From Candidatus Peribacteria bacterium (GTDB lineage Bacteria > Patescibacteriota > Gracilibacteria > UBA1369 > 2-02-FULL-48-14), in contig CALRCE010000003.1 in assembly GCA_943354505.1 (NCBI GenBank), positions 7,255 to 71,254 of the forward strand: 64,000 nucleotides of DNA. Reading direction: 5' to 3'. A program made the position numbers and the translations under genes. How positions within the stretch are numbered: position 1 is the first letter of the stretch; each line of letters opens with the position of its first letter. Below, piece after piece: positions 2,678-62,923 of the stretch. The notes below the pieces were generated by a model. It saw only the letters and a list, made by a program, of their open reading frames with translations, was not told the origin of the DNA and did no database searches.

Positions 2678-5041
2678 TCAGTAGCCTTTATTCTCTATGA
2701 TTTTCTCCAAAAGTTCCAGAGGATACATGGGTTTGGCTTCGGCCAGCCCTTGATGAAACAAAACCGTGGAAGGAGTGAGCGCCGGCAGAGTATTCACCTC
2801 AATGAGAATGAGATCTCCCGTATCGATTTGGATGAACGCATCCAAACGACTGTAGCCTTCAATACCCAGCACTTCACCGACTCGCTCAATCGATTTCTTC
2901 ACTCGAGCAAGCACCTTCGGTTTCACATATTTTTCCGGCGGAGGAGTCATGTTCACACCGGTTCCACCCTGAAATTTTTCTTCCACGGACAACACCTCTC
3001 CTTCTGCAACTGTCAAACTAGGACTGAGCGCGTGCAGCTTTTTCCCATCCTGCAAAACACCCACGGTCACTTCGACCCAGCCTTTTTTTCGTCGCCACTT
3101 GAGACGATTGCCTTTGACTCGCACGGTGTCCACTTCAATGAACTGTTCGAACAAAAGTTTGTCCATCGTGTGCAAGGGCATTTCGATGGGCGTCGTTTGC
3201 CCTCGAAAAGTTCCAGGTGGGATTTGGCTGGCATTGGTCAGAACCAACTCAATATAATTTTGCAAATCCTTGGATTCAAACAAGCGCACAATTCCCGAAG
3301 AGCATCCTTCGTCTTGGGGTTTCACAATGCAGGTGCGTGACTTCAGTTTTCTTTGAAGCTCCGCAAAGTAGCTTTCAAAATCTTTGGCCTTGAAGCCCTT
3401 GAATTCCAACGCTCCCGCCGTTTGTTTGGGCGCCACAAAGATGCCTTCTTTCTCGAGTCCGGCCAGTCGCCTCCCCGTCTCGGCCTTGTCCATGCACACC
3501 GCTGACGTTTCGGCCCCAGGCCCGTTGAACTTCACTCCTGCCTTGTCCAAAATCCGCTGCAAAGTACCATCTTCCCCAATTCCACCATGCAAGCCAATGA
3601 GCACAAAGTCGCTCTGCTTCACGAACTCATTGAGACTCATTTTTTTGGGAATGAAAAAGGTCTCCGTCAGATCATCCGGTTCCAAAGCCAAGCGCAATTT
3701 GACCTTTTCTTCCAAAAACTTGAGGCGTTTTTCACCTTCCTCTGCATGCTCACAATTTTCCAAAATTTCTTCCGCCGTGTGGTTGAGGGTCAGCGCATAA
3801 GGCACCTGCCAAACTCCTCCATTCAAGTCCAAAAAATAAGGTTTTGCCTCGTATTTTTCACTGCGCCTGAGTTTGAGCCACGCATTGGTGCCACTCATCA
3901 CAGAAACTTGCCGCTCCGACGTCGCTCCTCCAAACAGCACATTCACCGGCTTTCGCTTTTTAAGCGAGGGCTCTTTTTTAGGAGGCATTTTTATGCCGTA
4001 GCGGGTCGCCGCGTGCTTCACAACATAGTACAAAAGGTCACGGTGACTGAAGCCAATACGCGAAGTCTGCTGGAACAAAAAGCTGTTTTGCTCCATCCCA
4101 CTGATGGGATTGAAATCCGAAAACCAGATCTTTCCGTCCGGCATCAACCACCCATCGAAGCGCGCAAAGTCGCGCATCCCCATGATTTTGAAGAGCTGCT
4201 CCGCTTGGACTTGAATCCGCTCAATATCCTCGTTGCTAAAACGCGGTGGACAATGGTAACGCACTTGCCGAGTGGGCAAGTATTTTTTGCGGAAATCAAA
4301 AATTTGATTCTTCTCGTAATCCGTTTCAATTTCGGTCGGCAAAATCGCCACCGGCATGTCGAAACGATTCTGCAAGACGATCACCGTGAACTCGATACCA
4401 GTGCAAAAAGGTTCCAACACAACTCGCGTGTCCATTCGACGTCCAAAGAGCAGCTTCGCTTTTTCAAGGGCCTCAGCCGGAGTGGTCACCGAATGGACCC
4501 CGATGCTAGACCCCCCGCTCGCGGGCTTCACCACCGCTCGAGTCACTTTGTTTTCTTTAAAAAAAGCATCGATGATTTTCTTGTGATCGGTTTGATGAAT
4601 CTTCAAAACGGCGCTCGGAGGGGCATAAAACCCATTGGCTCGCACAAACTCGTTGGCCACGTGCTTATCCCAACGCTTGCAAGCCTCGATATCCGCGCCC
4701 ACATAGGGCACTTTGAAGCGTTCCAGAAGTCGCTGAATTCCTCCGTCTTCCCCAAACTGACCATGCATCACCGGAAAGGCCAGATCACAACTTTTCAAGA
4801 GCGTCTTGAGCCCCGTTTGGCTCAGAGCCTTTGCCGTTTCTCGCAACTTGAAGTCAAAATCCGACGGCGTATTCGAATACAGTTGCGAAGTTTGCAGATG
4901 ATAAGCTCGTTTTTTATGGTCAAAGTAGACAGGCACAATTTCAATCCCATCCCCTTCCAAGTGATTCAAAACACTGCGTGCCGAGTTGAGCGAGATGCCT
5001 CGTTCGAGCGAAGGCCCCCCACAAATGAGTGCAATTTTCAT
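2678..5041 (-). CDS. ddl: Tandem D-alanine--D-alanine ligase-like fusion (two complete Ddl/ATP-grasp modules)
   Basis: 787 aa. Module 1 starts MKIALICGGPSLERGISLNSARSV. Module 2 starts VNVLFGGATSERQVSVMSGTNA at about residue 353. Both carry HG.FGEDG-type and ATP-grasp motifs. Module 2 ends with the canonical LIEVNTLPALTPSTV. Confidence 0.8.
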   Translation of the reverse strand: MKIALICGGPSLERGISLNSARSVLNHLEGDGIEIVPVYFDHKKRAYHLQTSQLYSNTPSDFDFKLRETAKALSQTGLKTLLKSCDLAFPVMHGQFGEDGGIQRLLERFKVPYVGADIEACKRWDKHVANEFVRANGFYAPPSAVLKIHQTDHKKIIDAFFKENKVTRAVVKPASGGSSIGVHSVTTPAEALEKAKLLFGRRMDTRVVLEPFCTGIEFTVIVLQNRFDMPVAILPTEIETDYEKNQIFDFRKKYLPTRQVRYHCPPRFSNEDIERIQVQAEQLFKIMGMRDFARFDGWLMPDGKIWFSDFNPISGMEQNSFLFQQTSRIGFSHRDLLYYVVKHAATRYGIKMPPKKEPSLKKRKPVNVLFGGATSERQVSVMSGTNAWLKLRRSEKYEAKPYFLDLNGGVWQVPYALTLNHTAEEILENCEHAEEGEKRLKFLEEKVKLRLALEPDDLTETFFIPKKMSLNEFVKQSDFVLIGLHGGIGEDGTLQRILDKAGVKFNGPGAETSAVCMDKAETGRRLAGLEKEGIFVAPKQTAGALEFKGFKAKDFESYFAELQRKLKSRTCIVKPQDEGCSSGIVRLFESKDLQNYIELVLTNASQIPPGTFRGQTTPIEMPLHTMDKLLFEQFIEVDTVRVKGNRLKWRRKKGWVEVTVGVLQDGKKLHALSPSLTVAEGEVLSVEEKFQGGTGVNMTPPPEKYVKPKVLARVKKSIERVGEVLGIEGYSRLDAFIQIDTGDLILIEVNTLPALTPSTVLFHQGLAEAKPMYPLELLEKIIENKGY

Positions 5042-5060
5042 AGTTTTTACGGAAAAATTA
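5041..5060. repeat. Palindromic motif copy 1 (TAGTTTTTACGGAAAAATTA)
   Basis: The core TTTTT(A/G)CGGAAAAATT recurs at 5117-5136. This copy lies in the predicted 5' UTR of ddl. Confidence 0.4.
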
Positions 5061-5065
5061 ACTGG

Positions 5066-5094
5066 AGTTTACAGGTAAAAATACGGGGAAGCAA
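5066..5094 (-). promoter_or_regulatory. Sigma70-like promoter for the ddl operon
   Basis: Minus strand: TTGCTT (5094..5089), 17 nt, TAAACT (5071..5066). Confidence 0.4.
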
Positions 5095-5116
5095 GTGAAT
5101 TAGACTTAGCATTATA

Positions 5117-5136
5117 AAATTTTTGCGGAAAAATTT
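5117..5136. repeat. Palindromic motif copy 2 (AAATTTTTGCGGAAAAATTT)
   Basis: 8-bp inverted arms AAATTTTT/AAAAATTT around GCGG. It is a direct repeat of the 5041-5060 core. Confidence 0.4.
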
Positions 5137-5164
5137 ACGGTTCAAGAGCTCCCCGCCACACCTC

Positions 5165-5193
5165 TTGAGCCCATCCACATCTTCCCCTATAGT
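5165..5193 (+). promoter_or_regulatory. Sigma70-like promoter for the ABC-F gene
   Basis: TTGAGC (5165-5170), 17 nt, TATAGT (5188-5193), 21 nt before the ATG at 5215. Confidence 0.45.
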
Positions 5194-5214
5194 GTCGGCT
5201 AATTAAAGCCGCTC

Positions 5215-6636
5215 ATGCTCGTCGCAAAAAACCTCGCTTACGAAACCTCTTCCGGACACCTCTTCGAAGGGCTGGACCTATCCCTCGACGGAGCCGCCAA
5301 AAAACGCGTGGCCATCGTCGGCAAAAATGGCTGTGGCAAATCGACACTCCTCAAGCTCCTGCTCGGCGAACTCGAGCCTAGCGATGGAACCGTGAGCCGC
5401 TCCCAAGAAGTGGTAGCTTGTCTGAGGCAAGACATTCAATTCCCCGATGAAACCGTAACCGTGGGGGGCTACCTTCTCAGCAAGTTGGAAGAAGAATGGA
5501 TGAGCTACCAGATCGACATCGCCTTCGAACAAGTGAGTCTCGGCGCAGACCTCCTCGATCAAACCCTAAAAAGTCTCAGTGGAGGCCAACGCGTCCGTGT
5601 GGCCATTGCAGAACTCCTACTCCAAGAGCCCACCATCCTGCTGCTCGACGAGCCAACCAACCATCTTGACGTCGCCAGCGTGGAGTGGCTGATCGGATTC
5701 ATTCAAGACTTCCGCGGAACCGTGGCCTTCGTGTCTCACGACCGAAGCTTCATCAACGCCACCGCCAATCAAATCTGGGAAATCAGCGCCGAACAAAACA
5801 TCGAAGTCTACACCGGCACCTATGAACAGTTCCTGGTCCAACGCTACGAACGCTATCAAAAACGTCTGCAAGACCACGAGTTCAGCCAACGCGAAGTCAC
5901 CGAACTAGAACAGTGGCTCGCCGAAAACGCCAACCACCCCAAGTACAAATTCACCGCGACCGTGGCGCAAAAAAAGAAGGCCCTCGAACGCATGGAAAAG
6001 AAAGCTCCTCCCGCCCCCGTTCCGGACCCTCGCGTCAAAATGAAGTCCGTGCTCACCGGCCAAGCTGGAACGGTACTCAACCTCAAACTCAACTCGAAAA
6101 TCTTTGGCGACACCGAGATCCTCAAAAATGTGCAGCTCAAAGTCGAACAAGGCGACCGCATTCTCATCGAAGGCGCCAACGGCTCAGGCAAAAGCACGCT
6201 GCTCAATATTTTAAGCGGGACGGACAAGGCCTTCGATGGTCAACTGACTCTGCGGAACGGAATCAAAATCGGCATGGTCGGACAATTTTCAAAACTCGAT
6301 CCCGAAAAGACCGTGCTCGAAGAATTCGGCAATAACACTCGCATCGAATACAGCAGCGGTCGCAGCGTGCTCGCCAACTTCCTCTTCCCCGCCGAGTTCG
6401 TGGACAGCAAAATCAAGACCCTCAGCTACGGGCAACAACGCCGCCTTGAATTCGCCATCCTCCTCACCAACAAGCCCGACCTGCTCCTGCTCGACGAACC
6501 CACCAACCACCTAGACATCTTCCTCCGCGAAGACCTCGAGCGCTTCCTCGGCGACCAAGAAATCGCCATGGTCATGATCTCTCACGACAAATACTTCGTG
6601 AGCAAAATCGGAATCACTAAAAAACTCTCCCTATGA
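5215..6636 (+). CDS. ABC-F type ATPase (two ABC cassettes, no TM domain)
   Basis: 473 aa. Walker A motifs GKNGCGKST and GANGSGKST. Signatures LSGGQRVR and LSYGQQRR. LLLDEPTNHLD occurs twice. Confidence 0.8.
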   Translation: MLVAKNLAYETSSGHLFEGLDLSLDGAAKKRVAIVGKNGCGKSTLLKLLLGELEPSDGTVSRSQEVVACLRQDIQFPDETVTVGGYLLSKLEEEWMSYQIDIAFEQVSLGADLLDQTLKSLSGGQRVRVAIAELLLQEPTILLLDEPTNHLDVASVEWLIGFIQDFRGTVAFVSHDRSFINATANQIWEISAEQNIEVYTGTYEQFLVQRYERYQKRLQDHEFSQREVTELEQWLAENANHPKYKFTATVAQKKKALERMEKKAPPAPVPDPRVKMKSVLTGQAGTVLNLKLNSKIFGDTEILKNVQLKVEQGDRILIEGANGSGKSTLLNILSGTDKAFDGQLTLRNGIKIGMVGQFSKLDPEKTVLEEFGNNTRIEYSSGRSVLANFLFPAEFVDSKIKTLSYGQQRRLEFAILLTNKPDLLLLDEPTNHLDIFLREDLERFLGDQEIAMVMISHDKYFVSKIGITKKLSL

Positions 6637-7543: not shown

Positions 7544-9010
7544 CTACCTGTCCAAATCCAAGGTCTGATCGATGCGCACTTGCCACACGAATTCGGGAAT
7601 ATGCGAAACCAAAATCATCGCACCTTCGTATTTGTCGAGCGCCGCCGCAATCACCGGCAAGTGTCTAAAGTTGATGTGGTTCGTGGGCTCGTCCAAAATA
7701 AGGAGTCCCGGTTCCATGAGGACCAAGCGCGCAAAAGACACCAAGCCTTTCTGCCCTTCCGAAAGTGTCCCGATTTTCGAGTTGATCCATTCCTTCGTGA
7801 TCAAAAATCCAGCTGCCACCATGCGCATCCGCTCTTCCGAAGGACGCTCCCCTTCCTTGGGCTGCATCACTTCCAAAAGGGATTGGCGAACCGTATGCTC
7901 AAAATTCAAAGTGGAAAAATCCTGGCGGTAGTAGCCCACTCGAACGCCGCGTCCAATCGTCGCGCCCTCCGACTTCCCCGACGCAATTTTCTCGAGCAAA
8001 GTGCTCTTCCCGATTCCGTTCGGACCACACAAAAGCAGGTGTTCTTTTTTGCGAAGCGTGATGTCCACTTTGCGCGTCGTAGCCTTGTGATTGCGAATGA
8101 TCGAAACTTCGCTGAGCTTCAAAATTTCGCCCGACAGCTCTTCTTGCACCGGAATGTCGAACTCACGAATCGTCTTGTCTTCGCGGCGCACCTCCACCAT
8201 GGCTTCTTCCATTTCTTCGGCCTTGTCTCGCATTTTTTTTGCAACCAAACGCAGTTTTCCTCCCTTGTGAGAGAACACGTTCGCCTGTTCTTTGTTCTTC
8301 AAAATCCCTTTCGCCATTTGCGCGTTCTTCATGTTCTCACGCTCACGTCGCGCCTCAATCGCCGCCACCGCGTCGTAGTAATTCCCGACGTATTGCTCCA
8401 CTTTTTTAGTGAACACGTCGAGGTACAAAACCCCTTGGGTGAAGGCATTTAGAAAATCGGCGTCGTGCGAAATCACGATCACCGTTTTGGGATAGTTGAT
8501 CAAAAATTCCGTGAGATGCTCAATCCCAGCCGGATCCAAATTGTTCGTGGGCTCATCCAGCAGCAAAAGATCGGGGTCTTGAATCAGCGCCGACGCGAGC
8601 AAAAGCCTTGCCTGCTGGCCACCCGAAAAAGATTTGACGAGCCGATCGTGGGGCGCCTTCAAATTCACAATCGCCAAAACCTCATCGATGCGTCGCCCAA
8701 TGTCGTATTGTTTTTCTTTGAATCGTTTTTGGAAAAACGCTTCCACCGTGAGTTCGCGCTCCTCGTGCGGCATCACTTGGTGAGAAGTCGCAATGCTGAG
8801 CTTCGGGATCGTATTCACCACTCCAGATTTGGGCTTCAGTCCCCGGTTGATGAGTTTAAAAATCGTACTTTTCCCCGCTCCATTTTGCCCCATAAAAGTG
8901 ATCTTCGTGGCTTCGCGCACATTAAAATCCACTCCATCCAAAAGCGGACGGTTGTGCTCGTACTCAAACGAGACGGCGTCAAAACTGAGAATGGTTTCTG
9001 AATGGGACAT
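7544..9010 (-). CDS. ABC-F type ATPase (second paralog)
   Basis: Start trimmed to MSHSETILSF (ATG at 9010) because the upstream 40 codons overlap the tmRNA. Motifs: GQNGAGKST, GPNGIGKST, LSGGQQAR, LSEGQKG. Confidence 0.8.
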   Translation of the reverse strand: MSHSETILSFDAVSFEYEHNRPLLDGVDFNVREATKITFMGQNGAGKSTIFKLINRGLKPKSGVVNTIPKLSIATSHQVMPHEERELTVEAFFQKRFKEKQYDIGRRIDEVLAIVNLKAPHDRLVKSFSGGQQARLLLASALIQDPDLLLLDEPTNNLDPAGIEHLTEFLINYPKTVIVISHDADFLNAFTQGVLYLDVFTKKVEQYVGNYYDAVAAIEARRERENMKNAQMAKGILKNKEQANVFSHKGGKLRLVAKKMRDKAEEMEEAMVEVRREDKTIREFDIPVQEELSGEILKLSEVSIIRNHKATTRKVDITLRKKEHLLLCGPNGIGKSTLLEKIASGKSEGATIGRGVRVGYYRQDFSTLNFEHTVRQSLLEVMQPKEGERPSEERMRMVAAGFLITKEWINSKIGTLSEGQKGLVSFARLVLMEPGLLILDEPTNHINFRHLPVIAAALDKYEGAMILVSHIPEFVWQVRIDQTLDLDR

Positions 9011-9067
9011 GGGGAACTTATACAGCAAAAGAACAGGATTGGCTAGCCTGTTCAGCTCTAGCAAATT

Positions 9068-9502
9068 TGGTGGAGATGGCGGGAATCGAACCCGCGTCCA
9101 AAAAGGAAGTGCGAAACTCTCTACTTTCATAGTCTATCCTGTGTACGTTGAGCCAATAAAGGACAGACGAAAACGACCTCAACGTGTCTTCAAGGTTTCA
9201 GTTTACGAGTGGAACACAAGCCCCCGCAAACCTAAGCCCCGAGTATGACACCCGATCTCTCTCACAGGGCCTCAGAGAGTGGGCGTGACCGCGCTAAATG
9301 GCAGTCATGAAGAGGCGACTAGGCAAAAGCCAAAGCAGGAGCCAGACGAGCTGGAGCCATAGCCTTGAGAGCTGCTACGAGACCTTCTTCAGTAGTGTTT
9401 TTAGCACTTGAATTTGTCTGGACGGATTAGAGGTGGGACCAGACAACCACCTGAAAGCAAGCTTCGGACTTCGAGTCTTCTTGTCGAAACCTGTACATCC
9501 CC
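9068..9502 (-). ncRNA. ssrA: tmRNA (ssrA), about 435 nt
   Basis: On the minus strand, the 5' end is GGGGATGTACAGGTTTCGAC and the 3' end is GGACGCGGGTTCGATTCCCGCCATCTCCACCA. The acceptor pairing includes a G3:U wobble. An internal frame GCT AAA AAC ... GCT TTT GCC TAG spans 9405..9319. Confidence 0.85.
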
Positions 9503-15211: not shown

Positions 15212-15537
15212 TTATGCACATGTCTATAAGAAAAGAACTAACTAAATAATATATAAATATAAATTGTAGTGATTACAGAGGACCCTTGCCAAAGTGGACA
15301 AAAAACGAGCAAAACAAACAAATCCAGCGCAAAGTTTTAGCCTGTCATGTGCAAAACTTTAATCTTAAAAAGTGAAAAATTGTGCAAAACTCGTGGAAAA
15401 CACCTAGACACCTTTAAAACTTGTGAACGACACGGCCATTGCCACGCAAAATCATAAGAAGGCTCCAGACATCCCGTGCAGAGTAAGGGTCAAAACAACA
15501 AAAAATCCCGTGCAAAACAAAATCCCACTTTTGCACA
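15212..15537. other. Candidate replication origin (DnaA-box-like cluster plus AT-rich tract)
   Basis: TTATGCACA at 15212-15220. TGTGCAAAA at 15348-15356 and 15381-15389. CGTGCAAAA at 15509-15517. TTTTGCACA at 15529-15537. A nearly pure AT tract lies at 15241-15266. Confidence 0.4.
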
Positions 15538-15542
15538 GAAAA

Positions 15543-17399
15543 CTAAGCCACCAGCACCGTGGTGTTGATAAGTGGACGACGGTCAAAGCGTCTCAAAATC
15601 AGCCCAGCCACCTCACTCCGTACGGCCCCTTCAAAGTCCACCACATCCAAGCGGCGCTTTTCGCGGGCCACCAATTTGTCCACCCCAGCCTTTGCCGCAT
15701 TCTCGATGTCGCGGATGAACTTGAGCTGTTCTTTTTGGTAGAAAAAGCCACGAGTGACCACAATCGGCGTCCCCAGGGCCTTCCCTTTGCTGACTTTAAT
15801 GACAATGCTCACCATTCCGTTTTGCGCCATGATCTCGCGCTCCTTGAGCACATGAGAGCCCAAATCTCCACGCATTTCTCCGTCCACGACCACAAAGCGC
15901 ACCTTAATGTCTTCGTTCTTCATTTCGACTTTTCCGTCGCGAATTTCAATCACCGTTCCGTTGTCCATCATATGCACATTTTTCTCAGGGATTCCCACCT
16001 GTGGCCCCAAGTTTCCGTGGGCACGACGCATATAAAAGTTTCCGTGGATCGGCACCAAATGATCGGGTCGAATGAGACTCATCATGAGCTTCAAATCCTC
16101 CTGCTGCCCGTGCCCGGACGTGTGCACGTCCATGATGCCATTGTGCACGACATTCGCGCCCAAACGGGCCAAAGCATCCACCAAGAACGCCACCGATTTT
16201 TCATTTCCAATGATTGGCGAAGAAGAAACCACTACCGTGTCCCCCGGCTTGATTTTGACCTGCGCATGCGAACCGCCCGCCATACGAGACAGCGCCGCCA
16301 TCGGCTCTCCTTGCCCTCCTGTGGTCAGAACCAAAACCTCACGGTCTGCAAATTTATTCACCTCTTTGAGCGGCTTCAGCTGATCCTTGTGAAATTTAAT
16401 AAACCCGAGCTTATGCCCAATCTCCACGTTTGCCTCCAAACTTCCGCCGGACAAAAAGACCTTTCGTCCATTGGCCTGGGCAAAGTCGATGAGCTGCTGA
16501 ATGCGTCCGATGAGGGAAGCAAAGCAAGTCACCACCACGCGCCCCGTGGCATCGGAGATCGCCTTTTCGAGATTGTCCGCCACCACACGTTCCGAAATGG
16601 TGTGGCCTGGTTTCGTGGCGTTGGTGCTGTCCGCAAACAAAATGTTCACGCCACGCTTGCCCAGCTCATTCATCTTGCGAATGTCGCATTCAATGCCGTC
16701 GGCGGGAGTGAAGTCGAACTTAAAATCCCCGGTGTGCACGATGCTTCCCGCGGGGCTCTTGATAAAAATTCCCATGGAGTCCGGGATCGAGTGATTCACG
16801 CGGAAGAACTCCACGCTGAATTGCCCAAAATGATAAACCTGCTCGTTGTCCACGACCTTGAGCCGAGTTTGCTTGAGCAGCTTGTGCTCCTCGAGTTGTT
16901 TCTGCACCAGGCCCAAAGAAAGCTTGGAACCAAACACGGGAGGGAAGCCAAGGTCCGGCAACACATACGCGAGCCCGCCAATATGATCCAAGTGAGCGTG
17001 CGTGATCAAAATTCCACGGATGCGATCCTTGCGCTCCACCAAATATTGAATGTCGGGAATGATGTAATCCACCCCAAACATTTCATCGTCGGGGAATTGA
17101 AAACCCATGTCCACGATCACAATGTCGCGTTCGTATTCAATGATCATGCAGTTCTTCCCCACTTCTTCAAGTCCACCCACCGGAATCATGCGCATGACTT
17201 TAGGGTGAACAGCCAAATTCTGCTTCGGCGCAGGTCGGCTTTGAGGATGAGGAGCTTGGGGCTCATGCCGACGGTCGGGAGGGCGGGGCTTCTTCATCGG
17301 ACCCGCTAAAACCTCGCCCTGGGGCGTTGCCAAAGGCGCCTTAGACCCGCCTTGCACGGCAGTCCTAAGCCATTCTGAAAGTTTATCGATTTTGCTCAT
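15543..17399 (-). CDS. rnj: Ribonuclease J (metallo-beta-lactamase/beta-CASP)
   Basis: 618 aa. Motifs MIPVGGLEEVGKNCMIIEY and ILITHAHLDHIGG, followed by a beta-CASP region. The N-terminal extension is Pro/Arg-rich. Confidence 0.9.
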   Translation of the reverse strand: MSKIDKLSEWLRTAVQGGSKAPLATPQGEVLAGPMKKPRPPDRRHEPQAPHPQSRPAPKQNLAVHPKVMRMIPVGGLEEVGKNCMIIEYERDIVIVDMGFQFPDDEMFGVDYIIPDIQYLVERKDRIRGILITHAHLDHIGGLAYVLPDLGFPPVFGSKLSLGLVQKQLEEHKLLKQTRLKVVDNEQVYHFGQFSVEFFRVNHSIPDSMGIFIKSPAGSIVHTGDFKFDFTPADGIECDIRKMNELGKRGVNILFADSTNATKPGHTISERVVADNLEKAISDATGRVVVTCFASLIGRIQQLIDFAQANGRKVFLSGGSLEANVEIGHKLGFIKFHKDQLKPLKEVNKFADREVLVLTTGGQGEPMAALSRMAGGSHAQVKIKPGDTVVVSSSPIIGNEKSVAFLVDALARLGANVVHNGIMDVHTSGHGQQEDLKLMMSLIRPDHLVPIHGNFYMRRAHGNLGPQVGIPEKNVHMMDNGTVIEIRDGKVEMKNEDIKVRFVVVDGEMRGDLGSHVLKEREIMAQNGMVSIVIKVSKGKALGTPIVVTRGFFYQKEQLKFIRDIENAAKAGVDKLVAREKRRLDVVDFEGAVRSEVAGLILRRFDRRPLINTTVLVA

Positions 17400-17544: not shown

Positions 17545-20055
17545 ATGAGCCTTACGCCCACCGCCTTTGTCTTCAAGACCGCGAGCTTCCACCACAAAGA
17601 ACGCCGCGTCGACTTTTCTTATCGCATCACATTCAAAAACAGCAAGCCCCTCAACTTCAAAGAGACCCTCACGCTTCCCAAACAGAAAACTCAGAAACTG
17701 CCGCCCGCGCTGCTCAAAGAGTTGATCAAAAACCTGCACCTCGTTTTAGGCCTGAGCTACTACAAGCTCTACTGCCCGAAGAAAATCGAAGTTCCCTACA
17801 AGCTCACCGAGTGGGAAGCCGGCTTTTGGCACGACCTTTACGAGAGAGGACTTGGCGAATTCTTTTATCGCAACCAAATCGATTACCGTGGGCTCATCCG
17901 CTTCCCGTTCAGCAAAAAAAAGAACCCCTTTGTGCCCGTTTCACTTCCCACCAAAGAGAGCGCGCTTCTGGGCATTGGAGGTGGAAAAGACTCCATCGTC
18001 GCGGGCGAATTCCTCAAAAAAAGAAGACTGCCCCTCACCGGCTTCGTCCTTGAGACCGGCAAGGCCTCGCCCGTTGTCAAAGACGTGGCCAAAACCATGG
18101 AGCTCAAACTCCTCACGGTTAAACGAAGCTTAGACCCCCAACTCTTCAAAACACTGCCCGGCTCCTTCAACGGACACATCCCCATCTCCTCCATCTTCGC
18201 CTTTGTCGGACTCTTCACTGCGGCGCTCTACGGGCACCGCTACGTCGTGGTTGCCAACGAGGCGAGCAGCAGTTTCGGCAACCTCACCTACCTCGGCCAA
18301 GAGGTCAATCACCAGTGGAGCAAGTCCATCGACTTTGAGCGCCGCTTCCAAACGCACACGTGGCTGAATTTGACCCGTGACGTCACCTACTTCTCCGCCA
18401 TCCGCCACCTCTACGAAATCCGCGTCGTGGAAGAGTTCGTCAAGCACCCCAAGTACTTCAAAAAGTTCACCAGCTGCAACCGCAGCTTCCGGGTGGATAA
18501 AGAGCGCCCAAAAACCTTGTGGTGCGGAGAATGCGCCAAGTGCGCCTTCGTCTTTGCGGAACTCGCCGCCTTTTTAAAGCCGGCCGAACTCCTCCCCATT
18601 TTTGGCAAGAATCTTTTCGAAGACGAGGCCCTCCTACCGATGTATAAAGACCTTTGCGGCCTGGGCAAGCTCAAGCCCTTCGACTGCGTGGGCACCTTTG
18701 AAGAGAGCCGCGCCGCCTTGCGTCGTGCCAGCAAAAACTGGGGCAAGGCCAAGCTTCTCAAAACCCTGAATCCTCTCCTCCAGAAAAACTTTCCAAAAGA
18801 CGATGAAGCACCTCTCTTTAAAGTCCAAGATGCACCTTCGCTCCCCGCGCATTTCAAATTTCTCGGCCTGAAAGACGTGCTCATCCTCGGCTATGGAAAA
18901 GAAGGCAAAGTCACCGAAAAGTACCTCAAAAAATTCTACCCGAACTTGCCCCTCCGCATCGGGGACCAAGCGACGAACGCCCACTACCTCGAGCTCCAAA
19001 AGCAAGCAGATTTTGTGGTGAAAACCCCCGGACTCCCCGGCTCCAAAGTCACCGTCCCCTACGCCACTGCGACCCAAATCTTCTTTGCCCACGACCGCCA
19101 CTTTAAATTCGGAGTAACAGGCAGCAAAGGCAAAAGCACCACGGCTTCTCTGCTCGCACACATCCTCAAAACCGCAAAAAAACCAGTCCAACTTCTGGGC
19201 AACATCGGCAGCCCCATGCTCGACGTACTGCTCAAAAAATCGAGCCCAAAAACAAACTACGTGCTGGAGCTTTCCAGCTACCAGTTGGAAGAACTTCGCC
19301 AATCCCCGAACGTCGCCGTGATCACCAACCTCTTCCCCGAGCACATGAACTACCACGGGAACGTGGACAACTACTACGACGCCAAATTGAATCTCCTTCG
19401 GTTCCTCGGACACGATGGCCTCTTCGTCTGCAACACCGCTCATCCTCTCCTTAAAAAATGGAGCAAAATGGGAATGAAAACGGTGCCTTTTTCCAAATGG
19501 GCTCCTGCCAAAACCAACTTACTCGGCGAACACAATCGCTCCAACGCCGCGGCCGCCATCGCCGCCGCCACAGCCGTTTACAAAATCCCAAAAACCACAC
19601 TCAGCAAGGCCGTGGCCAGCTTCCAGCCTCTCCGTCACCGCCTCCAAAAAATCGGCACCTTTCGCGGCATCACTTTTTACGACGACGCCATTTCCACTTC
19701 GCCCGAGTCCACCATCGAGGCCCTCAAAGCCCTCGCTCCGCTCGGGCCGATCGGCACCATTTTCTTGGGCGGAGAGGACCGCGGTTACGACTTCACCGAA
19801 CTTGAAAAAGAACTGCGCCGTCGCAAAATCCCGAACCTCGTGCTCTTCCCAGACACCGGCAAACGCATTCTAAAATCTCGCAAAGGCTTCAAGGTGCATG
19901 AGGCCACTTCCCTCAAAGAAGCCGTCAAGCTTGGTTACAAACTCACGCCAAAAGGCCACATCTGCCTCCTCTCCACCGCCTCTCCTCACGCCTTCGGGAT
20001 GAGTTTCGAAGATCGCGGGGATGAGTTCCAGCGCCTAGCCAAAGCAGCCCGCTAA
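17545..20055 (+). CDS. murD: Fusion protein: N-terminal PP-loop ATPase-like domain (MurL-like candidate) plus C-terminal MurD-type UDP-MurNAc-L-Ala:glutamate ligase
   Basis: 836 aa. The N-terminal half has GIGGGKDS (17971-17994) and CGECAKCAF. The C-terminal half has GVTGSKGKSTT, NLFPEHMNYHG, GEHNRSN and DDAISTSPEST (Mur ligase). Confidence 0.75.
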   Translation: MSLTPTAFVFKTASFHHKERRVDFSYRITFKNSKPLNFKETLTLPKQKTQKLPPALLKELIKNLHLVLGLSYYKLYCPKKIEVPYKLTEWEAGFWHDLYERGLGEFFYRNQIDYRGLIRFPFSKKKNPFVPVSLPTKESALLGIGGGKDSIVAGEFLKKRRLPLTGFVLETGKASPVVKDVAKTMELKLLTVKRSLDPQLFKTLPGSFNGHIPISSIFAFVGLFTAALYGHRYVVVANEASSSFGNLTYLGQEVNHQWSKSIDFERRFQTHTWLNLTRDVTYFSAIRHLYEIRVVEEFVKHPKYFKKFTSCNRSFRVDKERPKTLWCGECAKCAFVFAELAAFLKPAELLPIFGKNLFEDEALLPMYKDLCGLGKLKPFDCVGTFEESRAALRRASKNWGKAKLLKTLNPLLQKNFPKDDEAPLFKVQDAPSLPAHFKFLGLKDVLILGYGKEGKVTEKYLKKFYPNLPLRIGDQATNAHYLELQKQADFVVKTPGLPGSKVTVPYATATQIFFAHDRHFKFGVTGSKGKSTTASLLAHILKTAKKPVQLLGNIGSPMLDVLLKKSSPKTNYVLELSSYQLEELRQSPNVAVITNLFPEHMNYHGNVDNYYDAKLNLLRFLGHDGLFVCNTAHPLLKKWSKMGMKTVPFSKWAPAKTNLLGEHNRSNAAAAIAAATAVYKIPKTTLSKAVASFQPLRHRLQKIGTFRGITFYDDAISTSPESTIEALKALAPLGPIGTIFLGGEDRGYDFTELEKELRRRKIPNLVLFPDTGKRILKSRKGFKVHEATSLKEAVKLGYKLTPKGHICLLSTASPHAFGMSFEDRGDEFQRLAKAAR

Positions 20056-21539
20056 AACTGCACCTTCTTTCGCACCTCTTCGGGGAAAACATTGAACGCA
20101 AACAAAAGCCCGATGTACACGCCTGCGCCCAGCACCGTGAGCAAAGCCACGTTGAAGTTTTGCAGCCCCCACAAATGGTAGGTGGGATCTTTCAAAAAGT
20201 AGACCACCATGCCCATCGCAAGACCCGCCGCCGAGATTTTAACGAAATTCCCCCACTCCACTTTGTAGGCAAGAAAGCGTCGTGCCGTCCAACCGGCCAC
20301 CAGCAAAATAAACACCTCGGTCGCCACCGTAGTCCAAGCCGCTCCACGGAAGCCCCAACGAGGAATAGCCCACAAGTTGATCAAAATATTGAACACCGCC
20401 GCACCTCCGTTGATCCAGAGCAACTTGCTCTGTTTGCCCAGCGCCACCAAAGAATAGTTGTACAAACTGCTGCTGAACGAAATGCACATTGCAATCGCCA
20501 AAACCTGCAACGCAATGTCCGAGCCGTAAATCCCCTTGTCGAGCTGGCTCATGAATTCAGGCTGCGTGATAATAAAAATGATCGGATACGCCAGCAAGTA
20601 GAGCCCGATGGCCATGGGCAAGCCCGCCATGTACAAAAAGTTCATGCACAGCTGCAAAATGCGCTCGACCTTCTTCTTCTCGGTGAGGGAGCGACTGAGC
20701 ACCGGCAAAACACTGTTCATGAAAAAGACCGGGATCACATTCAGGATTTCCAAAATGCGCATGGCCGGCCCGTAGAACCCCAACTCATGCGGACCTTTGA
20801 TAAACAAAATCAGAAGGCTATCGATGTGGAAGTAAACCATGTTGAGGACCAAGGCGATTCCATAGGGGAAAGCGCCCACGATCACTTCCTTCCAGTAGAC
20901 TTTATCGAAGCAAGGCAAGAGTTTAGCGTAACGAGCCGCATAGTAGTAGGTCGCAAGAAAAGAAAAAAGATTCCCAAGGAGCCCCGCGATCATGAGTTGA
21001 TTGAACGAGGTTTGATTGGGCTCACCCACAAAAAAGTAAAAAATCACCGCGAGCATCCAGCCGAAGGAAAGCAGTTTGCCGCTCACCAAGGCCAACGTCG
21101 CATATTGCATCTTGAGCTCCACCTGCAAAACACTCGAAACGGTTCCCTGCAAAATAGCAAAAAACACGGCGAAAGCCGCAATCGAAACACCTTCCGGTAT
21201 GAAGGTTCCTTGATAAGCCGGAATCACAAAAGCTCCGACCACCGCGAGCGCCATGGCCACGGCAGCCGTCACGACGCGCATCCCAAGAATGTTGCCCGCC
21301 ACAAAGTTTCGATCGCGCACGCCACGACTCATTTCGCGCACGCCAATGGTGAACAGACCAAAATCCGCAGCGATTCCAAAGAACCCCAAAAACTCGTAGA
21401 CCGCGGTGTACTGCCCATACCCCTCCACACTCAAAAAATGCGAAATCGATTTAAGGATCCCAATGCTGGTCACCGCCATTATGCCGCGCCCAGCGACTTG
21501 AATCACGGTGTTCCCCAGAATTTTCTTTGCAGTCGTCAT
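20052..21539 (-). CDS. MOP-superfamily flippase (Wzx/MurJ-like polysaccharide or lipid II flippase)
   Basis: Start trimmed to MTTAKKILGNTVIQVAGRG. About 12-14 TM helices. The N-terminus is typical of the oligosaccharide flippase family. Confidence 0.65.
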   Translation of the reverse strand: MTTAKKILGNTVIQVAGRGIMAVTSIGILKSISHFLSVEGYGQYTAVYEFLGFFGIAADFGLFTIGVREMSRGVRDRNFVAGNILGMRVVTAAVAMALAVVGAFVIPAYQGTFIPEGVSIAAFAVFFAILQGTVSSVLQVELKMQYATLALVSGKLLSFGWMLAVIFYFFVGEPNQTSFNQLMIAGLLGNLFSFLATYYYAARYAKLLPCFDKVYWKEVIVGAFPYGIALVLNMVYFHIDSLLILFIKGPHELGFYGPAMRILEILNVIPVFFMNSVLPVLSRSLTEKKKVERILQLCMNFLYMAGLPMAIGLYLLAYPIIFIITQPEFMSQLDKGIYGSDIALQVLAIAMCISFSSSLYNYSLVALGKQSKLLWINGGAAVFNILINLWAIPRWGFRGAAWTTVATEVFILLVAGWTARRFLAYKVEWGNFVKISAAGLAMGMVVYFLKDPTYHLWGLQNFNVALLTVLGAGVYIGLLFAFNVFPEEVRKKVQF

Positions 21540-21672
21540 CGGCGCCCATTGTAAAGCTTCTTCCTCGGCAAAACAAACCCTGGTCTTGTCCCAGCGACAT
21601 GCTCCCACGGGCCTTCACAAAAACGCTATCTTTTTGCTATCCTTTTTGCGACTGACCCTAGCCAGCACCTTC

Positions 21673-28634: not shown

Positions 28635-29669
28635 TTACAAAAAATCACGCAAAAACCTCCCCAGTCTGTACAAGGACCACCATAGCCGTCGGTACACAAA
28701 GACCCTTGCCCCGGGGTATTCGACACGGCTCCCGCCAAAACGCGTTTTGAACTGGGTCACTCCCGCCAAGGCATGCTTCTCGCCCGCCACTCCTTCGGGA
28801 GCGATGCCTAAGAAGTCGTAGCTTTTAAACCCGGCCTTTTTAGCCTCGTAGATCGCATGCCACTGCAAAAGGTAAGGCGCCATGACCTTGCGGTCTTCGT
28901 TGGACGAAGCACCGAAGTAATACGTGGCCGTATCGCCAAACAAAGTGACGAGCATTCCGCCCACAATCCGCCCTTCAAAATCCGCGACATACAGCACCGC
29001 ATCGTCACCCAAAATCCGCAAAAAATCCTTATAGAACGAAAGAGGGTGCACTCCAAAGCCATCCCGCGCTCCCGTTTGGGCCAAGATGGCATAGAAAGCG
29101 GCCAAATCCTTCTCCTCGCCCCGTCGCACGACAACACCCGCCTTTTCAGCCATCTTGATGTTGTAGCGGCCTTTTTGTGCCATTTGTTCCAGCAGCGCTT
29201 TTTCAGAAAGCCCCAAATCTACAGGCAGCGTATGCGAAGGCAAATATTCCTCTTTCCCGGGCGCGCCTTTTAGCGTCAACCCTTCGGGCAAGATTCCAGG
29301 CTCCAACCGCAAAAAAACATCTCCGTTCAGGCGCGCCCAATTCCGGCACGCTTCTTGCAAAAGATCCCACGCTTCTTCGGCTTCCTCATCCGCGAGCCCA
29401 TTCTTTAAAACCGCCCCCCGCGGCGCCCAGAGCCAGGTTTTTCCAAAGCCCATTTCTTGCCGCACCACCAAAAGACTCGCCAAAAACGCACCCTTTTTTT
29501 CATCGCCTTCCTCTTCAACCACCGCGAAAACTCTAAAGCCAGGCCGCCCCTTCAGGCTAGTCTGCAATTCTCCCCACGCCCAAGTCTGCTCAATCGGGCT
29601 GCCCGCCTGCCCCGCCACAAACTTCGCCAATTCCTTCTGATGAGATGAGTCGAGAACAGTGCTGTGCAT
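28635..29669 (-). CDS. FemAB-family peptidyltransferase (lipid II peptide-bridge/branch formation)
   Basis: 344 aa with the length and pattern of the FemX/FemAB family (QTWAWGELQ ... FKTRFGG). Confidence 0.75.
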   Translation of the reverse strand: MHSTVLDSSHQKELAKFVAGQAGSPIEQTWAWGELQTSLKGRPGFRVFAVVEEEGDEKKGAFLASLLVVRQEMGFGKTWLWAPRGAVLKNGLADEEAEEAWDLLQEACRNWARLNGDVFLRLEPGILPEGLTLKGAPGKEEYLPSHTLPVDLGLSEKALLEQMAQKGRYNIKMAEKAGVVVRRGEEKDLAAFYAILAQTGARDGFGVHPLSFYKDFLRILGDDAVLYVADFEGRIVGGMLVTLFGDTATYYFGASSNEDRKVMAPYLLQWHAIYEAKKAGFKSYDFLGIAPEGVAGEKHALAGVTQFKTRFGGSRVEYPGARVFVYRRLWWSLYRLGRFLRDFL

Positions 29670-31212: not shown

Positions 31213-32445
31213 CTACTTTTGCATCTTCTGCCTAATGAACGCAGGAATGTCGTATTCGCTGCCGCCGTCTTCACTCATAGGGAGTGAAGGATTGCTGGGG
31301 CGAAGTTCCGTGTTGGATTTTGGAAGTCCAGAAGGCTGTTGCATGGGCTTTTGCATTCCAACCGCACTCGTTCCCATCGGGCGGAATTCGCCGAGAGGAC
31401 GAGTGATCGAAACACCCCGTTTGATGTCGTCGAATCCAGTCGCCACCACCGTGATCTTGATTTCTCCAGTGTAAGAGTCGTTGATGACCGCTCCGAAGAT
31501 GATGTTGGCCTCAGGGTCCGCCGCTTCCGTGATGATGCGAGCCGCTTCATCCACTTCAAACATAGACAAGTCGCTTCCTCCAGTGATGTTGAACAAAATT
31601 CCTTTTGCTCCTTGGATATCGAGTTCGAGCAAAGGACTTTCTACTGCAGCACGAGCCGCTTCGGTCGCACGGTTTTCTCCTGTTCCATATCCGATTCCCA
31701 TGAGGGCGGATCCGGCGTTTTCCATGATCGCTTTCACATCGGCAAAGTCCACGTTGATCATTCCGTGTACGGTGATCAAATCGGAGATGCCTTGGACACC
31801 TTGTCGGAGTACATCGTCCACCACCATGAAGGCCTCCGTGAGAGGAGTCTTTTTGTCGATGAGCGACAAAATCTTGTCGTTCGGGATCGTGATCAGCGTA
31901 TCAACCTTATTTTTGAGGTTCTCGAGTCCTTCTTCGGCTTGTGTACGACGACGGTGTCCTTCAAACGTGAAGGGTTTGGTCACCACAGCGACGGTCAGAA
32001 TTCCCATGTTGCGAGCGATCTCGGCAATGACCGGTGCAGCTCCCGTTCCCGTTCCTCCTCCAAGTCCACAAGTGATGAAGAGCATCTCAGTTCCCTCCAA
32101 CGCCTGTTTGATTTCTTCTGTGGATTCCTCCGCCGCTTGTCGGCCCACATCGGGGTGACTTCCAGCGCCAAGACCACGAGTCGTGGCCTTACCAATGTTG
32201 ATTTTGGTGGCCGCTTCGCTGTGGTACAAAGCTTGAGCATCGGTGTTCACCGCAATGAACTCAATCCCCTTGATGTTGGATTTGATCATGCGGTTGAGCG
32301 CGTTTCCGCCTCCCCCTCCGGCACCCATCACTTTGATGCGGGCAACAGGAGTCACTTCAGAAGGGTTCACTTCGAAGTTTTTACGGGGCTTGGAGCCGGA
32401 GAACAGCGTTTTCAAGCTGTCGTCGTTTTGAGATGAGCTGGCCAT
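31213..32445 (-). CDS. ftsZ: Cell division GTPase FtsZ
   Basis: 410 aa. Motifs [31 protein letters not shown] and NVDFADV. Confidence 0.95.
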
Positions 32446-32539
32446 AGGGACAGGGTAAAGGAGTTAGGGGCGGCGTAGATCACTCAGCGGAGCTGAGTTT
32501 TAATAACAAAAGGAATTTTTATTTTGGAGAACCACTGTA

Positions 32540-33784
32540 TCACGGAAGCAGTCCGCGGAACCAGTTTTTGATTCCTTGGCCCATCTTTTCGAAGTTCAGG
32601 TTCTTCATATCGAACTTAAAACTGTAGTTGTCGCCTTGAAAGCGAGACCCCCAGACCACGAGCCCGAGCACACTGGCGTAGGCAGGATCTTCAATCTTAT
32701 CCACCACGCCTTCGTAGTTGGTGGGGAATCCGATTTGAATGGGCAAGTTGAGAACTTCACGAGCGAGGTCAATCACGCCGGGCATCTTCACGGCAGCGCC
32801 ACACAAAATGGCTCCGGCAGGCAACATTCCGTCGCGTTGAACGCGAGCGAGTTCATCCTTCACCATCGCAAAAATCTCGTGATAACGCGCTTGAATGATT
32901 TCAGCGAGTTGCTTTTTGGAAACGGTTTGAGTGTCGATTTTAGAAAGCAAGGAAAGGTCGATGGTTTCACGGTCGTGAATGTCTTCGGGAATGCAAGATC
33001 CATATTCGATCTTAATCTTTTCAGCGGTGTCGATAGACGTGCGCAGTCCAATCGCAATGTCGTTGGTCACATTGTCTCCGCCTACTGGCAAAGAAGCGCT
33101 GTGCAGCACCGTTCCTTCTTCAAACACAGCCACGTTGGTTCCTCCACATCCAATGTCTACGACCACCACGCCAAGTTCTTTCTGGCGTTTTGTCAAAACC
33201 GCTTCCGCAGCCGCAAGGCCACAAGGGATGATGTCGTTGATGTCCACGCCGGCTTGGTGCACACACTTTTCAATGTTCTTCACGGCAGGAACGAGTCCCG
33301 TAACAAGATGCGCGAGCACTTCGAGACGAATTCCGGTCATGCCCACAGGGTATTTGATGCCCATCTGTTCATCCACGGTGAAGCTCTTTGGAATGATGCG
33401 CAAAATGCGTCGATTGTTCGGAATGGCCACGGCCTGAGCCGCTTCCAGCACACGATCCACGTCGTCTTCGATGATTTCATTCCCGGTGTGAGAAATAGCG
33501 ATCACGCCCTTGCTGTCCATGGACGCAATGTGGTCTCCCGAAATTCCCAAGAACACGGCATGAATCGGTTCCCCCGCCATGCGTTCGGCGTCTTCCAAAG
33601 CCGACGAAATGTTCGCAACGGTTTCTTCCACATCGATGATGTTTCCTTTTCGTAGTCCTCCCGATGGAGAAACTCCGACCCCGATAATATTAGGCTGAGT
33701 GCTCTCCTCGTCCAGAACGGCAACCGCCGCACGGATTTTAGAGTTTCCAATATCAAGCCCAGCAATGATTCTGTGTTTTGGCAT
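32540..33784 (-). CDS. ftsA: Cell division protein FtsA
   Basis: 414 aa. Actin-like ATPase motifs (GLDIGNSKIRAAV, VVVDIGCGGTNVAVF), located upstream of ftsZ. Confidence 0.9.
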   Translation of the reverse strand: MPKHRIIAGLDIGNSKIRAAVAVLDEESTQPNIIGVGVSPSGGLRKGNIIDVEETVANISSALEDAERMAGEPIHAVFLGISGDHIASMDSKGVIAISHTGNEIIEDDVDRVLEAAQAVAIPNNRRILRIIPKSFTVDEQMGIKYPVGMTGIRLEVLAHLVTGLVPAVKNIEKCVHQAGVDINDIIPCGLAAAEAVLTKRQKELGVVVVDIGCGGTNVAVFEEGTVLHSASLPVGGDNVTNDIAIGLRTSIDTAEKIKIEYGSCIPEDIHDRETIDLSLLSKIDTQTVSKKQLAEIIQARYHEIFAMVKDELARVQRDGMLPAGAILCGAAVKMPGVIDLAREVLNLPIQIGFPTNYEGVVDKIEDPAYASVLGLVVWGSRFQGDNYSFKFDMKNLNFEKMGQGIKNWFRGLLP

Positions 33785-41565: not shown

Positions 41566-42189
41566 ATGCAGTTTATAAACTTTCAAAAACAACTCTCAGC
41601 TTATCCGATCTTTTCTCTACAAGAGGTGAAAAAGTTGGTGAACAGCTTCTCTTATAGGCAGCTGGATCGTTGGGAAAAGAAAGGCTACCTGAAAAAGGTG
41701 AAGCGAAGGTTTTACTGTCTCAGCTCTCAAGAGGTGGATCAGAATTTTCTATTTTATACGGCAAATAAGATTTACGCGCCTTCCTATGTGTCTTTAGAAA
41801 TGGCATTGAAGTATTACGGACTCATCCCTGAAGAGATTTTTCAGATCACTTCTGTGGGAACAAAAAAGACAACGAACTTCGAAACGCCCGTCGGAAATTT
41901 CAGCTACAAACATATCAAGACTAGCCTTTACTTCGGGTATAGATTGATCGAGTTTGGCCCGCAAAAAGTTCTTTTAGCAGAGTTGGAAAAGGCCATTTTG
42001 GACTATCTGTACATCCATACAAGACTCAAGACGGCCGCAGACTTTGAAGGGATGCGCATCAATAGAGACGAGTTGAACTCCCAACTGAACCTTGAGAAGT
42101 TTCAAAACTATTTGGCCGTTTTTAACAACAAGCAGCTCTCTAAACGCGCAAAACTATTTTTAACCACTATGCACGCCAGTGCGCTTTAA
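41566..42189 (+). CDS. abiEi: AbiEi-like antitoxin/transcriptional regulator (type IV TA)
   Basis: 207 aa. The N-terminal wHTH-like segment FSLQEVKKLVNSFSYRQLDRWEKKGYLKKVKRRFY and its pairing with a downstream DUF1814-type gene support the call. Confidence 0.65.
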   Translation: MQFINFQKQLSAYPIFSLQEVKKLVNSFSYRQLDRWEKKGYLKKVKRRFYCLSSQEVDQNFLFYTANKIYAPSYVSLEMALKYYGLIPEEIFQITSVGTKKTTNFETPVGNFSYKHIKTSLYFGYRLIEFGPQKVLLAELEKAILDYLYIHTRLKTAADFEGMRINRDELNSQLNLEKFQNYLAVFNNKQLSKRAKLFLTTMHASAL

Positions 42190-42194
42190 TAATT

Positions 42195-62856: not shown

Positions 62857-62923
62857 AAGCAGTAAATTTGAGGTTTGAAGACTAGCAGAAAGAGGTCTAA
62901 AATACAAATGAACACTCCCGCCC

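Follow-up and report, generated by a model that had tools for sequence, protein, structure and literature searches.

A probable single-chain MurL-MurD2 enzyme for peptidoglycan D-glutamate in a Candidatus Peribacteria genome

An alternative branch of peptidoglycan precursor synthesis that supplies D-glutamate (D-Glu) is said to have been described in Xanthomonas oryzae by Feng et al. in 2017, the source study for its two enzymes, MurL and MurD2. The X. oryzae proteins are XOO_1319 (MurL) and XOO_1320 (MurD2), with orthologues in Stenotrophomonas, Micromonospora and Salinispora (PMC8788868, PMC5808125). Ligation of L-glutamate (L-Glu) and its subsequent epimerisation are known from the orthologues of Xanthomonas, Micromonospora and Salinispora. 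The epimerisation is a one-way L-to-D reaction in which MurL depends on ATP and Mg and sets AMP free; adenylation of the alpha-carboxylate has been proposed for MurL, which is said to be without known conserved domains (PMC8788868, PMC5808125). The pathway is stated to occur in few genera of Alpha- and Gammaproteobacteria and in rare actinobacteria, homologues elsewhere being of low similarity (PMC8788868, PMC5808125). Here we describe a gene at 17545-20055 of a 64-kb stretch of Candidatus Peribacteria DNA (the window, meaning the whole stretch; all nucleotide positions below are window positions, and residue numbers are those of the 836-residue product). We consider it very probable that this protein is a bifunctional MurL-MurD2 enzyme of the alternative D-Glu branch. 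This reading rests on the homology of both halves, the residues that determine specificity, the fold, and an evolutionary tie with operons in which murL and murD2 are split; from these we infer that both activities reside in this one protein.

The fusion gene and its two halves

The gene and its parts are as follows.

17545..20055, plus strand: whole predicted MurL-MurD2 fusion gene, an uninterrupted open reading frame (ORF) of 836 residues with an ATG start and its stop codon at 20053-20055
17545..18858, plus strand: MurL domain (residues 1-438), from the NF041275 match, identity to Xanthomonas sacchari MurL, the MurL ORFs of split loci, the N-domain model and Foldseek
17971..17994, plus strand: PP-loop GIGGGKDS (residues 143-150), the presumed loop binding the ATP alpha/beta-phosphates for adenylation; aligned with QueC SGGQDS and kept in X. 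sacchari MurL
18307..18324, plus strand: NHQWSK (residues 255-260), invariant in 72 fusions and X. sacchari MurL; a gap in the QueC alignment
18475..18543, plus strand: four-cysteine cluster C311...C327-x2-C330-x2-C333, a presumed structural Zn site; all four Cys invariant
18523..18543, plus strand: CGECAKC (residues 327-333), located by a motif search of the ORF
18673..18696, plus strand: KPFDCVGT (residues 377-384), invariant; counterpart KPFECVG in X. sacchari MurL
18859..18870, plus strand: fusion junction (residues 439-442), where the murL stop and murD2 start of related genomes map
18871..20052, plus strand: MurD2-type Mur ligase domain (residues 443-836; UDP-binding, ATPase and C-terminal subdomains), from Pfam, TIGR01087, Foldseek and X. 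sacchari MurD2
19111..19143, plus strand: Mur-ligase P-loop GVTGSKGKSTT (residues 523-533), K530 aligning with E. coli MurD Lys115
19339..19344, plus strand: E599-H600; the Glu, a determinant of stereospecificity, corresponds to Asp182 of E. coli MurD and Glu197 of Xanthomonas MurD2
19681..19698, plus strand: DDAIST motif, with Ile716 at the Lys319 position of the canonical DSKxTN; X. sacchari MurD2 has DSIST
19780..19782, plus strand: R746, corresponding to Lys348 of E. coli MurD and Arg358 of MurD2
19981..19995, plus strand: S813-P814-H-A-F817, whose Pro and Phe correspond to Pro433 and Phe435 of MurD2 and to Ala414 and Leu416 of E. coli MurD

The PP-loop GIGGGKDS and the CGECAKC motif that an earlier note on this DNA had pointed out in the N-terminal half both lie in this ORF and are kept in 72 full-length homologues. 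Indeed, G143, G145-K148, S150, C311, C327, C330, C333 and C381 are invariant in all 72, and D149 is found in 71. Because these motifs are invariant or nearly so, they are no chance matches, and since the single-ORF form turns up again in 120 or more protein clusters and 36 of the 80 GTDB species loci, it is no sequencing or assembly artefact. The AlphaFold2 model of the full-length fusion has a predicted local distance difference test score (pLDDT) of 93.9 and a predicted template modelling (TM) score of 0.91.

The earlier note had offered MurL as an uncertain identity for the N-domain, and the profile comparison it proposed bears this out. The NCBIfam MurL model NF041275 matches the N-terminal half over its whole length (E=1.1e-95, 320.8 bits, model positions 9-417 of 447), and BLASTP against the PGAP-annotated MurL of X. 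sacchari gave 39% identity (E=1e-71). A nine-sequence alignment revealed that the MurL proteins of the candidate phyla radiation (CPR) and X. sacchari MurL have in common IGGGKDS, NGHxP, NExS, NHQWSK, SCNRxF, WCxxCxKC and KPF[DE]CVG. A Pfam scan of the window protein was blank in the N-terminal half because the Pfam copy used was without the MurL_N and MurL_epimerase_C models. The two families (PF26299 and PF26298) are precomputed on all of the top 120 homologues, and their names were taken from an 85%-identical syntenic relative, P0002, that bears both. Among PDB sequences, a 65-residue stretch of the N-terminal half (residues 248-312, 18286-18480) matched viral RNA-directed RNA polymerase L chains (E=4e-4); this match was judged chance or irrelevant, as domain-level coverage was absent and the fold result unrelated.

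A Foldseek search with the full-length model was dominated by MurD matches, and the N-domain was therefore modelled separately (pLDDT 95.5). Its best PDB matches were QueC (E=1.9e-5, TM score 0.67, target-normalised) and the QueC-like Cap9 (TM score 0.71), followed by TtuA, NcsA, NAD synthetase, argininosuccinate synthetase and MnmA. All the best matches are PP-loop enzymes that adenylate their substrate, in agreement with the PP-loop fold first suggested for this domain. In a MAFFT alignment with E. coli QueC, SGGQDS falls on the GGGKDS of MurL and Cys188, Cys197, Cys200 and Cys203 fall on C311, C327, C330 and C333, column for column. According to the model, the MurL core is a QueC-like PP-loop ATP pyrophosphatase with a Rossmann-like alpha/beta core. 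It stands outside the QueC family proper: no QueC model was matched in Pfam or among the 25 best NCBIfam matches, and identity to E. coli QueC is about 22%, in the core only. QueC adenylates a carboxylate. The equivalent cysteines of the homologous Bacillus subtilis QueC bind Zn, and the four-Cys site of MurL is probably a Zn site. The QueC-like fold together with the motif alignment thus supports the adenylation mechanism proposed for MurL and agrees with the reported release of AMP. Three invariant elements of MurL are without a QueC counterpart, namely the N-terminal beta domain, NHQWSK and KPFDCVG with its C381; they are candidates for nucleotide-peptide binding and proton exchange. NHQWSK would be a MurL-specific insertion relative to QueC with a candidate role in substrate binding or acid/base catalysis, and C381 is a candidate catalytic thiol for exchange of the C-alpha proton.

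The C-terminal half had been recognised as a MurD-type ligase, and so it is. It matches Pfam Mur_ligase_M (E=1e-26) and Mur_ligase_C as well as the NCBIfam murD model TIGR01087 (230 bits, cut-off 212), and MurD structures came top in the Foldseek search with the full-length model (E=1e-27, TM score up to 0.77, target-normalised). The Mur-ligase catalytic residues are kept (equivalents of E. coli K115, N138, E157, H183, K198, H301/R302 and T321). Overall similarity and TIGR01087 were rejected as means of telling MurD from MurD2, since genuine Xanthomonas MurD2 passes this model too; the C-terminal half itself scores 121 bits with X. sacchari MurD2 and 97 bits with E. coli MurD. As a consequence, the MurD2 assignment rests on determinant residues and on the coupling to MurL.

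Glu197, Arg358, Pro433 and Phe435 of X. oryzae MurD2 lie near the glutamate, where E. coli MurD has Asp182, Lys348, Ala414 and Leu416; the E197D/R358K double mutation turns MurD2 to D-Glu, and K319T lets E. coli MurD accept L-Glu (PMC8788868). In a three-way alignment, E599, R746, P814, F817 and Ile716 of the fusion coincide with E, R, P, F and I of X. sacchari MurD2. E. coli MurD has D, K, A and L at the first four of these positions, and the lysine of its DSKxTN motif is absent from the fusion. Five solved canonical MurDs carry DH or TH, DSK[AGS]TN, K or R, and SPA[CN]AS, a pattern from which the fusion departs. Across the 72 full-length homologues the Glu is present in 67, the Ile in 71, and the Arg and the Pro in every one, and the MurD2 signature is found in both fused and split CPR ligase partners. 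The ligase therefore has the MurD2 specificity residues and not those of MurD, which favours the MurD2 identity that the earlier note had offered as a candidate. A variant concerns residues 811-821 (19975-20007), a segment that lines the glutamate pocket of MurD. The clade of the window (P0001-P0007, at least 69% identity) has SP-HAFGMSF there, with one residue deleted and with substitutions such as Y to H and W to G, versus SPSYSLWKNF in 66 of 72 fusions; the variant is closer to the APSFGAY of Xanthomonas MurD2 than the CPR consensus SPSYSL is.

Fused and split forms in related genomes

MurL is coupled to a MurD2-type ligase covalently here, and by gene adjacency in about 40 of the 80 related loci as well as in X. 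sacchari. In the latter, murL is directly followed by murD2 with a 20-nucleotide overlap, and this gene order is the domain order of the fusion. The separate MurL ORFs of split loci align to residues 1-438, which puts the split point at residues 438-443 (BLASTP with loci L012, L022 and L064). The X. sacchari murL was located by tblastn of the N-terminal half against plasmid records, on a 508-kb replicon (NZ_CP010410.1, 508,653 bp). This replicon is labelled a plasmid and is non-mobilizable. It bears ssb and aspartate kinase/diaminopimelate decarboxylase in addition to murL and murD2, and it resembles a chromid or a piece of a chromosome more than a plasmid.

The fusion was implicitly taken for a rarity in the earlier note. 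This view has to be abandoned, as Patescibacteria commonly have the fusion. Of 1,255 matches from a protein search, the best 120, which were inspected, are 778-885 residues long and all have the same four Pfam domains. Their hosts are metagenome-assembled genomes (MAGs) of Moranbacteria, Uhrbacteria, Parcubacteria, Buchananbacteria, Gracilibacteria and Paceibacterota. The names given to most of these proteins are 'D-glutamate ligase', 'Mur ligase family protein' or 'hypothetical', and two JGI entries bear the name of the epimerase. A scan of GTDB with one genome per species gave at least 587 matching stretches, the best 80 of which were analysed by ORF and hidden Markov model to define locus architecture. 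Almost all of these 80 are labelled CPR, with a few others such as 'uncultured Gammaproteobacteria'. The two genes are fused in 36; in about 40 they are neighbours on one strand, murD2 coming after murL and frequently overlapping it by 4 nucleotides; and in 5 they are cut by a contig end. Among representatives at 50% identity, the number of clusters with a match to the MurL domain is 2,546 for E<=1e-3 and 1,180 for E<=1e-30; roughly one sixth of the best 150 of them have the fused length. In a neighbour-joining tree of the MurL parts, rooted on Xanthomonas and without support values, the window falls in the largest fused clade, and the tree implies a split ancestor with two or three fusion events.

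CPR-type murL/murD2 genes are also present in several MAGs whose titles read 'uncultured Gammaproteobacteria', 'Weeksellaceae', 'Bacillota' or 'Candidatus Saccharibacteria' (L011, L027, L033, L034, L040, L043, L046 and others). These genes nest among Patescibacteria in the same tree, and the titles are probably unreliable as taxonomy. In addition, mobilizable Pseudonocardia plasmids bear a stand-alone MurL-like gene annotated as hypothetical, for example at 4959-6353 of Pseudonocardia sp. pFRP1-2, with two further matches. The pFRP1-2 gene is without a MurD2 neighbour and adjoins a WD40-repeat protein and integrases; MurL-family enzymes may thus serve in other contexts or on other substrates.

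Proposed reaction and competing explanations

In the reaction that we propose, the MurD2-type domain (residues 443-836) would couple L-Glu with UDP-MurNAc-L-Ala, converting ATP to ADP and Pi by way of an acyl-phosphate. The MurL domain (residues 1-438) would then spend another ATP on adenylating the terminal L-Glu at its alpha-carboxylate, yielding AMP and PPi, and the adenylate would be hydrolysed after stereoinversion. C381, H256, K260 and H211 are candidates for the catalytic base. Free D-Glu and glutamate racemase would both be dispensable in such a scheme. The fusion would guarantee a 1:1 stoichiometry, and the L-Glu intermediate may go directly from one active site to the other. On balance we favour the broader proposal that several CPR lineages run this route in one bifunctional enzyme, with the L-Glu intermediate perhaps passed between sites, and that the QueC-like four-Cys fold gives the first structural rationale for the adenylation-driven, one-way epimerisation by MurL.

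Several observations weigh against a MurL-MurD2 enzyme. The MurL match is under the equivalog cut-off of NF041275 (700 bits), a model specific to Xanthomonadales that gives 836 bits to X. sacchari MurL, 403 to a stand-alone CPR MurL and 321.7 to the Pseudonocardia homologue. This plasmid protein without a MurD2 neighbour scores like the window protein, so that the score alone leaves function unfixed. As regards the ligase, the C-terminal half passes the murD equivalog TIGR01087, as does genuine Xanthomonas MurD2 (298 bits), and its best match among PDB sequences is the canonical Streptococcus agalactiae MurD (149 bits, by a scoring method different from that of the other comparisons). The position of E599 is occupied by Asp in 7%-26% of CPR partners, depending on the set, an Arg at the Lys348 position is found in canonical Gram-positive MurD too, and the clade of the window has the diverged glutamate-pocket segment SP-HAFGMSF. 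Finally, an active MurI has been reported for at least one CPR lineage, Saccharimonas, in a reference cited in PMC11974145.

Three other explanations were weighed. The N-domain might adenylate the alpha-carboxylate of the stem-peptide Glu to amidate or otherwise modify it, for instance to iso-glutamine as MurT/GatD does, the ligase half being an ordinary D-Glu MurD. QueC, the closest solved fold, does turn an adenylated carboxylate into an amide and then a nitrile, and both equivalog results, the pass of the C-terminal half with the murD model and the MurL score under its cut-off, would fit such an enzyme. However, all invariant motifs of the CPR domain are common to Xanthomonas MurL, and epimerase activity has been demonstrated for this family in three genera of two phyla. 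Moreover, the ligase half has the determinants for L-Glu without those for D-Glu, and a glutaminase partner is neither fused nor conserved nearby, which makes amidation very improbable. Another PP-loop enzyme joined to MurD by chance or misassembly (a tRNA thiolase, a lysidine synthase or QueC) is effectively refuted. Although a PP-loop with CxxCxxC also occurs in QueC, TtuA and NcsA, the N-terminal half matched no QueC, TilS, TtuA or other named PP-loop or tRNA-modifying family in Pfam or among the 25 best NCBIfam matches. The earlier note had named such a match, together with a canonical murI in the genome, as what would overturn its view; MurL was the sole family match (E=1e-95). The architecture is repeated in hundreds of independent assemblies, the split forms are always paired with a MurD2-type ligase, and the 85%-identical relative has the same gene in the same synteny.

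The third explanation accepts the fusion and makes it redundant or accessory: murI and a canonical murD would also be present, and the fusion would serve in salvage or proofreading of L-Glu-containing precursors. The Saccharimonas MurI is in its favour. On the other side, a scan of 50 window ORFs, each 130 residues or longer, revealed no glutamate racemase (Asp_Glu_race), class-IV/D-amino-acid aminotransferase or second MurD in 64 kb that hold Ddl, MurF, FemAB, FtsA and FtsZ; this is weak evidence as regards murI, because the window covers 64 kb of the genome. The small genomes of the CPR group rarely retain redundant pathways, and the MurL/MurD2 pair is the sole D-Glu route in Xanthomonas. 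An accessory role therefore seems improbable to us, and a bifunctional MurL-MurD2 enzyme that supplies D-Glu remains the reading that we prefer.

Neighbouring genes and comparison with known systems

The wall and division proteins encoded in the window are a Ddl plus a Ddl-like half, a MurF-like ligase, which is the sole other Mur ligase, a FemAB-family protein, a VanW-domain protein, FtsA and FtsZ.

28635-29669, minus strand: FemAB-family transferase
31213-33784: FtsA and FtsZ
53611-55437, plus strand: VanW-domain protein
61582-62925, minus strand: MurF-like ligase (267 bits, just below the 288.6-bit cut-off)

The FemAB, VanW and MurF-like genes suggest a wall with an interpeptide bridge; they are dispersed rather than grouped in a dcw cluster. 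The Ddl gene (2678-5041, minus strand) encodes a 786-residue protein in which a complete D-Ala-D-Ala ligase (residues 1-346, TIGR01205, 324 bits) precedes a diverged Ddl-like half of the ATP-grasp type. Identity between the halves is 22% (E=4e-7), and the protein is another unusual tandem or fusion peptidoglycan enzyme in the window.

Around the fusion, the order Mfd-like, DnaN, RNase J, fusion, MOP flippase, RF, Def, FemAB is common to the window and the 85%-identical relative. No conserved neighbours were found in the 80 related loci, where Mfd, DnaN, RNase J, MOP flippase, RF, Def, MurF and FemAB each occur in at most one locus; the linkage of MurL with MurD2 is the only conserved one. The MOP-family (Polysacc_synt) flippase gene (20052-21608, minus strand) converges on the fusion, the two ends overlapping by 4 nucleotides (20052-20055). 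It also stands beside the fusion in the 85%-identical relative, has a homologue in 0 of the 80 related species loci, and may encode a lipid II or polysaccharide flippase. A promoter and terminator scan around the fusion gene gave nothing above the shuffled background, and no regulatory RNA was found nearby with Rfam. On the other side of the fusion, two long ORFs overlap on opposite strands, at 15423-17309 (plus) and 15543-17399 (minus). The minus-strand ORF encodes RNase J (beta-CASP, RNase_J_C), and the 628-residue plus-strand ORF, without a family match, is most likely a shadow ORF.

Two further features were noted. A transfer-messenger RNA (tmRNA) gene lies at 9068-9502 on the minus strand (Rfam, 120.7 bits; tag peptide AKNTTEEGLVAALKAMAPARLAPALAFA). 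The 3' portion of this gene overlaps the start of the longest ORF of an ABC-F ATPase gene (7544-9130), so that the true ABC-F start is probably farther downstream. At 41566-42971 (plus strand), a gene for an AbiEii-type nucleotidyltransferase toxin (42195-42971) is preceded by a 207-residue ORF without an assignment, and the pair is probably an AbiEi/AbiEii type IV toxin-antitoxin system.

The system described here belongs to the known MurL/MurD2 pathway, and what is new is the single-chain architecture and the host group. Since reviews confine the pathway to few genera, the fusion counts as a new architectural variant of a known system. A literature search, which covered few subscription journals, found no paper that ties MurL to CPR/Patescibacteria or describes a MurL-MurD2 fusion, and none of relevance on glutamate racemase in the CPR; the architecture is already displayed in domain databases. 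The alternative D-Glu route is common across the CPR, fused or as adjacent genes, and its reported distribution, a handful of genera, is thereby corrected to take in a major uncultivated radiation. Metabolic reconstructions of CPR genomes would go astray where they judge D-Glu supply by whether murI is present, and in hundreds of fusions annotated 'D-glutamate ligase' or 'hypothetical' the epimerase is hidden and the substrate mis-stated. Recognition of a QueC-like PP-loop with four Cys supports the adenylation mechanism and names residues to mutate. A natural single-chain MurL-MurD2 would also be handy for expression, structure determination, channelling tests and one-gene complementation of a D-Glu auxotroph.

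The closest described system is that of Xanthomonas, with which the window protein has in common full-length homology in both parts, the murL-murD2 order, all MurL motifs and the ligase residues E, R, P, F and Ile. It differs in being one polypeptide instead of two overlapping genes, in its limited identity (39% for MurL, about 30% for MurD2), in a shorter N-terminal MurD subdomain, in the variant SP-HAFG glutamate-pocket segment of its clade, and in a Patescibacteria-type host outside the stated distribution. With the canonical MurD of E. coli, Pseudomonas aeruginosa, Acinetobacter baumannii and S. agalactiae it shares the three-domain fold, the P-loop, the catalytic Lys, Asn, Glu and His and the carbamyl-Lys position. 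Unlike these enzymes, it is fused to MurL; in addition, its catalytic His is preceded by Glu where they have Asp or Thr, ISTxP takes the place of SKxTN, and Pro that of Ala at 414. The likeness to QueC and Cap9, and more distantly to TtuA and NcsA, lies in the PP-loop core, the four Cys at equivalent positions and a start by carboxylate adenylation. Identity to these enzymes is only about 15-22%, however, and MurL has an extra N-terminal domain of about 130 residues, the NHQWSK insertion and a C-terminal helical extension with KPFDCVG. Furthermore, the first Ser of SGGxDS is Gly in MurL, and the MurL adenylate would be hydrolysed after stereoinversion, whereas the adenylate in QueC-type enzymes is attacked by ammonia or sulfur. 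Finally, the MurE-MurF, MurC-Ddl and MurF-Alr fusions of NCBIfam also unite consecutive pathway steps in one chain. Those fusions combine two ligases, or a ligase and a racemase of a free amino acid, whereas the present one would combine a ligase with an epimerase whose substrate is the nucleotide-peptide made by that ligase.

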